The notes under the pieces are model-generated. The model searched no databases. It was not told where the DNA came from and saw only the letters and a program-made list of their open reading frames with translations. Made by a program: the position numbers and the translations under genes. Positions 1 to 56,100 of a stretch of DNA of 64,000 nt are shown one piece after another. Each line of letters begins with the position of its first letter. The stretch's first letter is position 1. Source of the stretch: Chrysomallon squamiferum (Eukaryota; Animalia; Mollusca); the NCBI GenBank assembly GCA_012295275.1, contig CM022673.1:21762001-21826000 (forward strand), read 5' to 3'.

Positions 1-3000
1 TGGTAGCTCGTTCTGACTCGTGGTTTTCTGCGAAAAGTTACTGCAAGGACAACTTTGCCGCTACATTAGTGAACATTAAAACATTCGCTGTCAACGACTT
101 CCTCGTCAAATGGAGATTCATTCGTAAGGTAATGACTGTGATTTTTTTTGTTGTTGGATCACAATGTGAATGCTTTTGCTAACTTCTACTACAAACTGCT
201 ACTACTGATAAAATCAATATTAATCATTTGATTCTGATAAATAAAAGTAAAAACTAATGTTTGTTTGTGTTTCTGTGTGTATGTCTATATATATATATAT
301 ATATATATATATATATATATATATATTATATATCTATATATGTATGTATGTATTTTCATGAAATAGTATATATATATATATATATATATATATGGTTTAA
401 TATTTTTCTTATCTTACTTAGAGTGGAAGATCGGTGGTGGGTGGGTGGAAGAAGATGGAGTGAACTGTGGAAGTGGGATGATGGATCTAAAATTAAAGAT
501 TTCGAAACTAAACGGCTCTTTAATCTTTGGAGTAAATAAATTTCCTTTTACTTAATCAAGAAACATACTGGTATTTATCGCTGTCGCTGTTTATGTTCGT
601 GTGTGAATGGGAAAAAATGTTGGTGGTCTAATACATTTTTTTATTTTACACTAACATGTGTACACGTAAAGTTGATGTTAATAATTTTTGATTCACTAAA
701 GAAGAATATTATAAACCGCGTGAAGATATTAGAAAAGAAAAATTCAGTGTATATAAAAATCATTTTATATAATAGAAAATAATATTATATCTACTTATAT
801 ACCACGATATCTATTTCATTACAATATTTTTTTCATTTTGACTGACCTTACATTTATTTTTTAGTTTATTGTTATTTCTCTGTTATCATCAGATATGTGT
901 CATAATTTGTTATCCCTGTGAATTCCTGTGATATTAGACATTATTTATTATTTCTGTGAATTTATGTGATATATGTCATTATATTTTTTCTGTGGGTTCA
1001 TGTATTATATGTCATTGTTTGTTATTTCTGTGAATTCATGGGTTATATGTCATTATTTGTTATTCCTGTGAGTATATGCGATATATGCTATTACTTGTTA
1101 TTTCTTGACTTCATGTGATAAAGTTCATTATTCGTTATTTCTGTGAATTCATAAAATAAATTTCATTATTTTTTCTTTCTGTGAATTAATAGAATGAATT
1201 TCATTATTGGTTAATCTGTCGCCTCATATAATAAATTTCATTATTGGTTCTCGCTGTGAATTAATGTGATAAACATCATTACTTGGTATAAATTCATACA
1301 TCCATATGTCTACATCTATATTTGCATCTTGATACCTTCATAAATATATTTTATTTTATACAGATCGTTGGTATTTGAGATGTACTCTGCACGGAAGTGG
1401 AAAAGAATGGAATGTGGCTAGATGTAATGACTATAATAACTATATTTGCGTTAAACGACTAACAGGTACGTCTAGCAGTAACGACAAACATATGAAGGAG
1501 AGTTAGTTATACATAAAAAGCTAAAAACAGAGTAAGAATATATATATACACACACATACACACACATACACATGTATATCTGTATGTATGTATGTTTTTT
1601 TTATATAATATGTAATGAGATAAATAAGAGAGAGAGAGAGAGAGAGAGAGAGAGAGAGAGAGAGAGAGAGAGAGAGAGAGAGAGACTGTTGAAAAATATC
1701 AGGTCTTTACTCTCTCTCTCTCTCTCTCTCTCTCTCTCTCTCTCTCTCTCTCTCTCTCTCTCTCTCTCTCTCTCTCTGCTGTGTTATACTAGTGATAAAA
1801 TTAATGTAATGACTTCTAACAGGGAGTCCTATGAAGTGCACAGATCGTAAAGAGGAATGTTCAACTCTGCTAAATGAAAACCCGAGAGCCTGCTTAGACC
1901 CTGTTATAAAAACCAACGTTTGTCCGTACACGTGTGGCGCTGATGTTTGTAAAGCAGAGGGTAAAATATTATTGTTATTATTATTATTATTTTTATTATT
2001 ATTATTGTTATTGTTGTTGTTGTTGTATGCATCAGACGCTTCTTCATTTTTAACTAATCAGGGGCTTGTAATTTGAAGCAGTCGTTTACATTTATGAATC
2101 ACATATATGTCAGTTATACCATACTGTTACAATCCACATACTGATGACTGGTAGGAAATATCTACACTGAAATATCATAAAGCAATTCAGTCAGAAGTGT
2201 TAAACTTCATTATTTCTATATTTTAAATGTACGATTTGCAACCAAACTCTGACATATCATTACTGTAGTATTATGGAATCATATATGCATATGTTATGGA
2301 ATCATATATGACATATTTTACATGACTTCAGAGGAACAACAATTAATGAAATATACGAATTAACACAAATAACAAATAATAACATATATTACATGAATTA
2401 ACAGAATTAACAAATAATGACAAATATTTCAGGAATTCACAAAAATAATAAATAATGATATATATTACAGAAATTCACGGAAATAACAAATAACGACATA
2501 TATCACATGAATTCACAGGAAGTTTATATATAAATTACTAGCAACAAAGAACAGTTATTTCTACATTCTTTCAATGTACTGACGGAAAATAATTTTAAAC
2601 AAAATGATACATAGTGATAGTATATAGTGATACAAAATAATAATAATCTCTCTCTCTCTCTCTCTCTCTCTCTCTCTCTCTCTCTCTCTCTCTCTCTCTC
2701 TCTCTCTCTCTCTCTCTCTCTCTCTCTCTCTCTGTATATATATATATATGTATCAAAGTAAAAAATATATATATATATGTATCAAAGTAAATAAAACCAA
2801 AAACACAGAAGACAAACACTATCCAACACTTCGTTATACATCAGACATTGCAAATTAATCAATGATGCCCGGTCACTGTTAGCAGAACTTTAATATGTTT
2901 ATGCTACAGTGTGTACATACGTCACTGTTAACAGAACTTTAATATGTTTATGCTGCAGTGTGTACACACGTCACTGTTAACAGAACTTTAATATGTTTAG

Positions 3001-53100: not shown

Positions 53101-56100
53101 GTAGCTCGTTCTGACTCGTGGTTTTCTGCGAAAAGTTACTGCAAGGACAACTTTGCCGCTACATTAGTGAACATTAAAACATTCGCTGTCAACGACTTCC
53201 TCGTCAAATGGAGATTATTCGTAAGGTAATGACTGTGATTTTTTTTTTTTTTGTTTTTTGGAATGTGAACGCTTTGAAAAAATAGCACCCATATTAAATA
53301 AAATGAAAATTTATATTGTGAAAACTGATTTCTGGTTGATAACTAGCTCCTCTGAGTTTACTTCAAGTTCCTAAGTTTCTACAAAAAAAAAATAAAAAAA
53401 TTTGAGAAAATATTTCTTACAAATCCAAAAGAAAAGAAATATCTAAAGACAAATTCAGTGCAATGCAAAATAAATCTGTATGAAAAAGTATAATATGAAT
53501 CCATGTGTGACTCTTACTGTTACTACTACTACTACTATCAGCCATCATCATCATCATCATTGTTATTCTTCTTCTTCTGCTCCTTATCACTATTATTATT
53601 ATTATTATTATTATTATTATTATTATATTATTATTAAAACACATTATTTTTTGTTTTCAAAATACAGTATCTACTACTACTACTACTACTACTACTACTA
53701 CTACTAGTACTACTACATGTACTACTACTTCTACTAACCTCTACAACTACTACTATTACCAGTACTAACTTTTACTATTATCACTTCTAACTTCTATTAC
53801 TAATATAACCAGTATTAATAATTTGAAGTGTTAACAATAAATAAAAATAATAACCAACATGTGTGTGTGTCTGTGTGTATATATATATGTATATATTTTA
53901 ACACTTGAATATTGTCTGTGCTATGTGTGTCTGATTAATCTGTGCACATGTGTGTGTACATAGGCATATATGTTTATATATGTTTGTAGGTATGTATGTT
54001 TAAAAGTGTGTGCATGAATGTATATTTTTGTATATGTATGTAGGTGATGCCTGCGCCTTTGTGTGTGTGTGTGTGTGTGTGTGTGTGTGTGTGTGGTTTA
54101 ATTTTGTTCTCATTTTACTTAGAAATGAAGATCAGTGGTGGGTAGGTGGTGCAAGATGGAAGATACTGTGGAAGTGGTATGATGGATCTAAAATGAGCGA
54201 TTTCGAAACTAAAACTCTCTTTAGTTTTCGCAGTAAATAGATTTTCTTTTACTTAATGAAGCAACATGTTGCTATTTATATTGTTGTTCATGTGTATGTT
54301 TGCGACTGCGATATTTTTATATTTTACACCAACATGTGCACACGTGATGTTGGCATGTTTCACGAACGAAGAACATTACAAAAAGCGTGAAGATATTACA
54401 AAAAAGAATTTAGTGTATGTGATAATCATTTTATATAATAGAAAACAATATTATATCTACATATGTACTAAGATATCTATTTCATTACAACACAGTTCTT
54501 ATACTGAATGAGCTTAGATTTATAGTTTGGGAAGAGTTTGTTGATATTTTGGCGAATTCGTCGGAAAATGTGTTATTTGTGATAAACGTCATTATTTGTT
54601 ATTCCCATGTATTCCTGTGTTATAACATTTGTTATTCTGTGTTACATAACACTATTTCTTATTAGTGTGTATTGATGTGTTACATAACATTATTTGTTAT
54701 TCCTGTGATAAATATCATTATTAGTTATAAACGTATACATACATACATACGTCCAAATCTACATCTATACCAGCTTATCTTCATAACTTTATTTTATTTT
54801 ATGCAGGGGTTTCGTATTTGAAGTGTGCTTTGCACGGAAACAACAAGACATGGAATGTGGGTAGATGTGCAGACTATTATAACTATATCTGCGTTAAACC
54901 ACTAAACGGTATGTATAGCAGTAAAGATATACATGAAAGAGAGAGACAGTTACAGAGAATGAGCGTAAAACAGAATATATAGACAGATAGCGAGAGATGG
55001 ACAGATATCAGTAGACTCTCTTGATAAATATCATGTCTTTCAGCAGAAACCTTGTATATTTTTTCTCTCTCTCTCTCTGTCGTCTCTGTGTGTGTGTCTG
55101 TGTGTGTGTATATGTGTGTGTGATGTGTGTGTGTGTTATACTAGTGATTTATTTGATTGTAAATTTGGAGTATATGATACAAATTAATGTAATGACTTCT
55201 AACAGGGAGTCCTATGAAGTGCACAGATCGTAAAGAGGAATGTTCGACTCTGTTAAATGAAAACCCGAGAACCTGCTTAGACCCTGTTATAAAAACCAAC
55301 GTTTGTCCGTACACGTGTGGCGCTGATGTTTGTAAAGTAGAGGGTAAAATATTATTGTTATTATTATTATTATTTTTATTATTATTGTTATTGTTGTTGT
55401 TGTTGTATGCATCAGACGCTTCTTTATTTTTAACTAATCAGGGGCTTGTAATTTGAAGCAGTCGTCTACATTTATGAATCACATATATGTCAGTTATACC
55501 ATACTGTTACAATCCACATACTGATGACTGGTAGGAAATATCTACACTGAAATATCATAAAGCAATTCAGTCAGAAGTGTTAAACTTCATTATTTCTATA
55601 TTTTAAATGTACGATTTGCAACCTAACTCTGACATATCATTACTGTAGTATTATGGAATCATATATGTATATGTTATGGAATCATATATGACATATATTA
55701 CATGAATTCAGAGGAATAACAATTAATGAAATATAGGAATTAACACAAATAACAAATAATAACATATATTACATGAATTCACAGAAATAACAAATAATGA
55801 CAAATATTTCAAGAATTCACAGGAAGTTTATATATAAATTACTAGCAACAAAGAACAGTTATTTCTACATTCTTTCAATATACTGACGGAAAATAATTTT
55901 AAACAAAATGATACATAGTGATAGTATATAGTGATACAAAATAATAATAATCTCTCTCTCTCTCTCTCTCTCTCTCTCTCTCTCTCTCTCTCTCTCTCTC
56001 TCTCTCTCTCTCTCTCTCTCTCTCTATATATATATATATATATATATATATATGTATCAAAGTAAAAAAAAAAAAAAAACACAGAAGACAAACACTATCC

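Follow-up and report, generated by a model that had tools for sequence, protein, structure and literature searches.

Recurrent divergence of lectin-like and ApeC-like exons in a homogenised array of astacin-like genes from Chrysomallon squamiferum

How do neighbouring gene copies come to be almost identical over most of their coding sequence while a few short exons differ as much as introns do? This question is raised by a stretch of 64,000 nucleotides from the mollusc Chrysomallon squamiferum (GenBank assembly GCA_012295275.1, contig CM022673.1, positions 21,762,001 to 21,826,000 of the forward strand), hereafter the window. Counting copies within the window only, it contains three tandem paralogues of one 25-exon gene, A (partial), B and C, all on the plus strand (Table 1; coding-exon numbering is used throughout). 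Each copy is predicted to encode a secreted zinc protease with several accessory domains, including a CTLD (C-type lectin-like domain) and what looks like a degenerate ApeC-like domain. An earlier note on this DNA proposed that a constant protease carries a variable recogniser diversified by selection. From the comparisons described here, that interpretation is partly supported: the mosaic of homogenised and divergent exons stands, as does its recurrence in a second, separately expanded set of genes, but positive diversification is not supported in the form claimed.

Homogenised and divergent exons

Between copies B and C, 20 exons differ at 54 of 2905 nt (1.9%), with a proportion of silent differences (pS) of 0.026, while most long intron cores are 15-34% different, although some introns are homogenised too (0-5%). 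Unconverted intron sequence is ~20% divergent in all three pairs of copies, and near-identity extends 0-800 nt outward from exon edges. Exons 22-25 are homogenised in all three copies, and exon 19, the first of the CTLD exons, differs between B and C at 2 of 172 nt, as the earlier note reported. Since these exons differ so little while intron cores are far more divergent, the exons have evidently been homogenised, most likely by interlocus gene conversion; silent sites and flanks are homogenised in tracts and fall far below the duplication age, as is characteristic of concerted evolution. Recent duplication with rapidly evolving exons was rejected as a source of this pattern, given silent sites at 2.6% but intron cores at up to ~30%. 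So was an assembly or polishing artefact, because in other sequencing runs exon 19 forms one near-identical contig whereas exon 20 splits into A and B types.

The remaining two CTLD exons, which span β2, the long loop and β3-β5, behave differently, and the divergent part is the long-loop/β3-β4 half, which supports the earlier note. Pairwise comparison of the three copies gives 18-24 differing positions in the 110 nt of exon 20 and 26-29 in the 102 nt of exon 21, a divergence of 16-28% in every pair. The exon 21 peptides read as previously quoted, with 18 (A-B), 13 (A-C) and 15 (B-C) of 34 residues differing, and between A and C 13 codons are replaced and three carry silent changes only. Both exons nevertheless retain open frames without indels, and three cysteines and six tryptophans are common to all copies (two other tryptophan positions vary), so that the conservation of cysteine and core tryptophan residues holds. 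The description of the paralogues as otherwise homogenised was too broad, as escape reaches beyond the CTLD. Between B and C, 24 of 135 nt differ in the ApeC-like exon 11 (16 replaced and four silent codons; ratio of nonsynonymous to synonymous rates, ω, 1.2), 16 of 105 nt in the 5' part of the sushi exon 18 (12 replaced, two silent; ω 1.1) and 11 of 66 nt in signal exon 1.

In the catalytic region, 11 of 204 codons differ between B and C, which is the part of the constant-protease claim that holds for this array. Nine of these 11 residue differences cluster in exons 5-7, following the zinc motif and surrounding the Met-turn (15830-17342 versus 43143-44728), where, judging from position, they could alter substrate preference.

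Contigs from four other runs, belonging to two studies, bear on whether the exon types are alleles; collapsed contigs drop rare variants and are therefore evidence of presence only. The contigs of all four runs agree with B exon 20 at 22 of 22 listed differences from C and with A exon 20 at 11 of 11, and no new exon 20 type was found in them at 80% likeness. C-type exon 20 lies outside contig coverage in all four runs, C-type exon 21 is identical in the two that cover it, and exon 21 of the A and B types has mostly diverged too far to be placed on C at 80% likeness. Since exon 20 of A type and of B type recurs without change in all four runs, the types are real; they have the look of fixed variants, not of alleles, and we infer that the between-copy differences are fixed. 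In this assembly B exon 18 is 14 nt shorter, B exon 22 contains a stop and A exon 19 has one extra base near its end (about 117-119). A full-length 168-nt B-type exon 18 is present in contigs of three of the four other runs and the short form in none, and neither the extra base nor the stop is listed in any of the four. These frame breaks are likely to be assembly errors or private alleles, which makes three working copies plausible on the reading frames. Contig depths hinting at 3-4 collapsed copies are not copy numbers and were not used. Some contigs of the other runs that map to 55220-55335 and 29757-29828 are near-identical in mid exon 22 or at the start of intron 19 and have ends absent from the window, which points to at least one further, more divergent paralogue elsewhere, with partial conversion tracts.

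Recurrence in Gigantopelta aegis

The proteins closest to the window gene come from gastropods and are uncharacterised: Gigantopelta aegis contributes three, Lottia and Babylonia one each. XP_041365798.1 and its two G. aegis paralogues, LOTGIDRAFT_172278 (Lottia) and XP_076465481.1 (Babylonia) are collinear with it over the whole length, and their own database names are uncharacterised or hypothetical. Two further candidates, P0004 and P0005, were rejected as their architecture is unrelated, and P0002 is a fragment.

The three G. aegis paralogues are encoded on one contig and share 66-67% identity. Of their 25 exons, 21 and 20 have the lowest mutual similarity (0.40 and 0.41), and exon 11 dips to 0.49 beside values of 0.95, 0.78 and 0.69; exons 1-3 were compared in one pair only, P0007 being without its start. 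In a tree of exons 20-21 containing all eight rows, A, B and C of the window form a clade of their own (support 99/97), and hence the window pattern arose separately from that of G. aegis, whose array serves as a natural replicate. The escaped exons of the window and the non-homogenised exons of G. aegis overlap at four of five (hypergeometric p 0.012), or at three of four without the signal exon (p 0.035), in a test whose threshold was chosen after seeing the data and which includes two adjacent exons.

Whether an exon escapes is not predicted by how well it is conserved between species (Spearman -0.16, p 0.43). Identity to G. aegis is only 30-39% in exons 3, 10, 19 and 25, which nonetheless differ by no more than 0-1.4% between B and C, while exon 11, of middling conservation (0.47), still escapes. 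Neither exon length (p 0.64) nor microsatellite distance (p 0.21) separates the four escaped from the 20 homogenised exons. Escape is not random in these alignments: the same exons recur in G. aegis, while equally fast-evolving exons stay homogenised here. The other half of the earlier proposal does not extend to this species, since catalytic exons 2-6 of the G. aegis paralogues are only 42-58% identical and a constant protease is thus not a family rule.

Selection against conversion and competing explanations

The explanation ranked first, with relaxed constraint close behind, is that copy-specific recognition surfaces (CTLD exons 20-21 and ApeC-like exon 11) are kept apart by selection against conversion; we consider its chances of being correct about even. 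A, B and C would be old tandem duplicates whose exons are kept near-identical, most likely by gene conversion, and selection would remove those conversions that erase copy-specific binding surfaces, leaving exons 20-21 and 11 different. The accessory modules would direct a catalytic unit that is nearly common to all copies towards ligands that differ from copy to copy. Protected blocks would drift to intron-level silent divergence, and an ω near 1 is therefore expected without an ongoing arms race. A more specific version, which we put forward only tentatively, envisages a secreted gastropod protease family with a conversion-homogenised chassis and two separately protected patches, the C-terminal part of the ApeC-like domain and the CTLD long loop, with a non-sugar target for each copy and protection arising independently in two lineages.

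Site tests were applied to exons 20 and 21 together (70 codons), with codon frequencies computed without exon 11. The plain tests, including the M7/M8 comparison that the earlier note had called for, are significant (M1a/M2a p 0.027, M7/M8 p 0.019, M8a/M8 p 0.007), with ~16% of sites at ω ~7. Of the 70 residues, 34 are invariant against 27 expected under neutrality (p 0.058). Despite a fixed core, the pooled escaped blocks have an ω of 0.95, compared with 0.57 in homogenised exons. A number of results weigh against a role for selection. The one-ratio (M0) ω of exons 20 and 21 is 0.73 (pairwise 0.48-0.96) and is not different from 1 (p 0.33), and the contrast in nonsynonymous to synonymous changes between escaped and homogenised exons is not significant (p 0.16). 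The site signal weakens to p 0.09 when multi-nucleotide changes are allowed, to 0.41 with among-site rate variation and to 0.34 with both. Non-coding intron 20, read as pseudo-codons, is itself significant in five of six frames with its repeat-rich part and in two of six without. Exon divergence (0.22-0.24) is not above that of well-aligned intron 20 (0.20-0.21; Fisher p 0.48-0.67). Ranked by conservation between species, exon 21 comes second from the bottom and exon 20 third; the correlation across paralogues (rho -0.39, p 0.053) is only borderline, and escape extends to the signal exon, a classic case of low constraint. Finally, only three sequences (A, B and C) enter the site tests, and exons 20 and 21, being neighbours, are not independent. 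Positive selection on these exons is thus at most suggestive from the codon comparisons, and a clear excess of amino-acid change does not emerge from the escaped exons. An ω not above 1, together with exon divergence equal to that of the neighbouring intron, is what the earlier note had named beforehand as evidence against itself, and its claim of diversification in the sense of dN/dS>1 is not sustained.

Much of this is what relaxed constraint would produce. Loop-rich exons under weak purifying selection would have diverged like introns, fallen below the similarity that conversion needs and never returned, an account that is possible although we think it somewhat less probable than selection against conversion. 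An ω not different from 1, exon divergence at the intron level, escape of the signal exon and the low conservation of exons 20-21 between species all suit it, and a half-conserved/half-neutral model fits the site data equally well once rates vary. In simulations described in the accessible part of a recent preprint, purifying selection and conversion alone give a mosaic in which weakly constrained sequence escapes (10.1101/2025.10.29.685298), and the CTLD long loop is described as variable in general in the portion consulted of PMC7618208. What relaxed constraint does not account for is that exons 3, 10, 19 and 25 are equally or less conserved, yet homogenised, and that exon 11, though of middling conservation, escapes in both species. 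The most variable codons (13-14, 37-39, 49 and 58 of 70) presumably lie in loops, if the CTLD topology is as we take it to be, which fits both accounts; a structure model of the relative P0001, made from a five-sequence alignment, had a mean pLDDT of 39.8 (<50 over the CTLD), too low for surface clustering to be judged.

Two further explanations fare less well. Local physical barriers might have blocked conversion irrespective of function, as there is a 38-bp minisatellite in intron 20 (869-1289), microsatellites lie 28-31 nt from exons 20 and 21, and indels are present. However, exons 19, 22, 23 and 25 have microsatellites at 15-54 nt, yet are homogenised, exon 11 escapes with no microsatellite within 700 nt, and recurrence at the same exons in the proteins of another species would not be expected, so that we regard this as improbable. 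Still less credible, in our judgement, is hypervariability driven by an ongoing arms race, each copy having many alleles in the manner of immune recognition families. The plain site tests would agree with it, as would the binding of peptidoglycan by ApeC domains in other proteins (PMC9585378, in the part available), but A- and B-type exon 20 are unchanged in all four other runs and C-type exon 21 in the two covering runs, within the limit that contigs drop rare variants, and no new exon 20 type appeared at 80% likeness.

Under selection against conversion, the escaping exons would point to the surfaces that probably determine specificity in this uncharacterised protease family, and the escape of exon 11 offers a hint of where the ApeC domain, itself poorly understood, might touch its ligand. 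The array also offers a clean test case for distinguishing relaxed constraint from selection in conversion mosaics.

Gene architecture, flanking sequence and known systems

Domains were assigned by exon-wise Pfam matches and collinearity with relatives. Their order is signal peptide, propeptide, astacin, EGF-like, ApeC-like (exons 9-11), CUB, kringle, linker, sushi, CTLD (exons 19-21), ShK-like, sushi and an unnamed C-terminal domain.

Table 1. Positions of the gene copies and their principal exons within the window
Feature	Position	Strand	Remark
Copy A, coding exons 19 (partial)-25	1..4847	+	exon mapping
A exon 20, CTLD β2 and long loop, divergent	422..531	+	same type in 4/4 other runs
A exon 21, CTLD loop 4 to β5, divergent	1364..1465	+	
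Copy B, 25 coding exons	13313..34824	+	exon mapping
B exon 1, predicted signal peptide, divergent from C	13313..13381	+	
B exons 2-7, propeptide end and astacin domain, homogenised with C	14142..17342	+	
B exon 11, C-terminal part of degenerate ApeC-like domain, divergent from C	19195..19329	+	
B exon 18, first sushi domain, 5' part divergent from C	29294..29447	+	
B exon 19, CTLD N-terminal half, homogenised	29552..29723	+	
B exon 20, divergent	30459..30568	+	
B exon 21, divergent	31168..31269	+	
Copy C, 25 coding exons, open frame of 1163 codons and stop	41181..60004	+	spliced translation
C exon 11, ApeC-like C-terminal part, divergent from B	47163..47297	+	
C exon 18, first sushi domain	52794..52961	+	
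C exon 19, CTLD N-terminal half, homogenised	53054..53225	+	
C exon 20, divergent	54123..54232	+	
C exon 21, divergent	54807..54908	+	
C exons 22-25 (ShK-like, second sushi, C-terminal domain), homogenised with A and B	55206..60004	+	

The zinc motif of the astacins (M12A), HEXXHXXGXXH, is present with its catalytic glutamate in exon 5 of B and C. Exon 6 carries an SPMLY Met-turn (SXMXY), exon 1 is hydrophobic and RMKR precedes the mature start. The Pfam Astacin family matches one window exon weakly and the collinear relative P0001 with an E of 7.7e-11. Among proteins of solved structure, exon 19 matches CTLDs (131 sequences at E<=1, with 2.5e-05 for the best single-domain match); a PDB sequence search with exon 21 gave only matches at E>0.6. 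The domain has the features of a long-form CTLD, with WWVGG or WWIGG at the WIGL-like β2 position and three cysteines, including the terminal pattern, kept. According to the sections consulted of PMC7618208, the long-loop region of CTLDs carries ligand specificity and is generally variable, and EPN/QPD in the long loop and WND in β4 are the motifs of Ca2+-dependent carbohydrate binding. EPN/QPD was not found in the CTLDs of A, B or C, and the WND position reads WNV, WKV and WNV; canonical Ca2+-dependent sugar binding is consequently unsupported, and any ligand would probably not be bound through such a site. That the domain is a lectin, as the earlier note had it, is thus unproven, and the variability is not confined to the lectin-like exons.

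An ApeC domain comprises ~200 aa with eight cysteines and three DXED motifs, as set out in the available part of PMC8361754. No DXED, ~7 cysteines and no Pfam PF16977 match (on exons 9, 10 or P0001) were found here, but exons 9-11 are collinear with the ApeC domain of the Babylonia protein (P0003), have an Atlas lead at 0.88 and probably represent a degenerate ApeC-like domain. The Babylonia protein XP_076465481.1 itself has a full ApeC domain (E 7.8e-46) and a CTLD with WND, whereas the window and G. aegis have degenerate forms of the two. Word-based protein searches gave no match for exon 9 or exon 25 (28 and 25 candidates), and a full HMMER scan with exon 25 returned five proteins, of which three are plausible family members. 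The C-terminal domain (exons 24-25; C 59055-60004) belongs to no Pfam family, is present as several repeats in the Babylonia relative and occurs also in a metagenome protein.

Outside the coding exons, a non-coding stretch of about 180 bp 5' of the signal exon is identical in B (12775-12955) and C (40645-40820) and is likely to be a promoter or an exon of the 5' untranslated region (UTR). The B-C spacer (34850-35100) is without the ~4 kb that comes after the stop codon in A (4900-9000) and C (60030-64000). This stretch includes an exon-like block with splice sites (~8790-8898 and 63880-63992) that may be a UTR exon, and GT follows the stop codon in A, B and C. Intron 17 measures 5.2 kb in B versus 228 nt in C; in B it is flanked by ~770-bp inverted repeats of 78% identity (24210-24976 and 28297-29005), resembles a decayed DNA transposon and contains short broken frames only. 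Between B and C, a 179-aa open stretch on the minus strand (36533-37072) resembles a fragment of a decayed non-long-terminal-repeat reverse transcriptase. A 49-bp minisatellite in intron 22 has ~40 copies in C (56242-58363) versus ~3 in A (2872-2999).

No description of this array was found in the papers searched, although its architecture may appear among complex groups 8-9 of PMC9585378, a source available in part. Selection against conversion is known mostly from a few vertebrate and model-organism loci, and although the process is familiar, the literature search gave no report of it recurring in two lineages at the same CTLD and ApeC exons. In the vertebrate clustered protocadherins, where conversion is restricted to certain domains, and in exon 7 of RHD/RHCE, tandem paralogues are part homogenised and part kept apart, which the accessible text of PMC3966226 reads as selection against conversion. 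In the present array, by contrast, homogenisation covers the greater part of a large enzyme gene and spares only short blocks of recognition type, with no shared constant exon and no alternative splicing. The primate L/M opsins (the Teshima-Innan signature) likewise show a local divergence peak in a converted background, but in the portion consulted of PMC3924837 the opsin flanking introns are homogenised; because long introns have also escaped in the present array, its divergence peak is weaker evidence of selection than that of the opsins. The closest parallel in layout is the HMA4 triplicate of Arabidopsis halleri, three tandem copies in which exons and short introns are homogenised and long introns have escaped. 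In that system, as far as the accessible part of the preprint describes it, no coding exon escapes and divergence reaches up to 6%, compared with ~20% in the array described here (10.1101/2025.10.29.685298).

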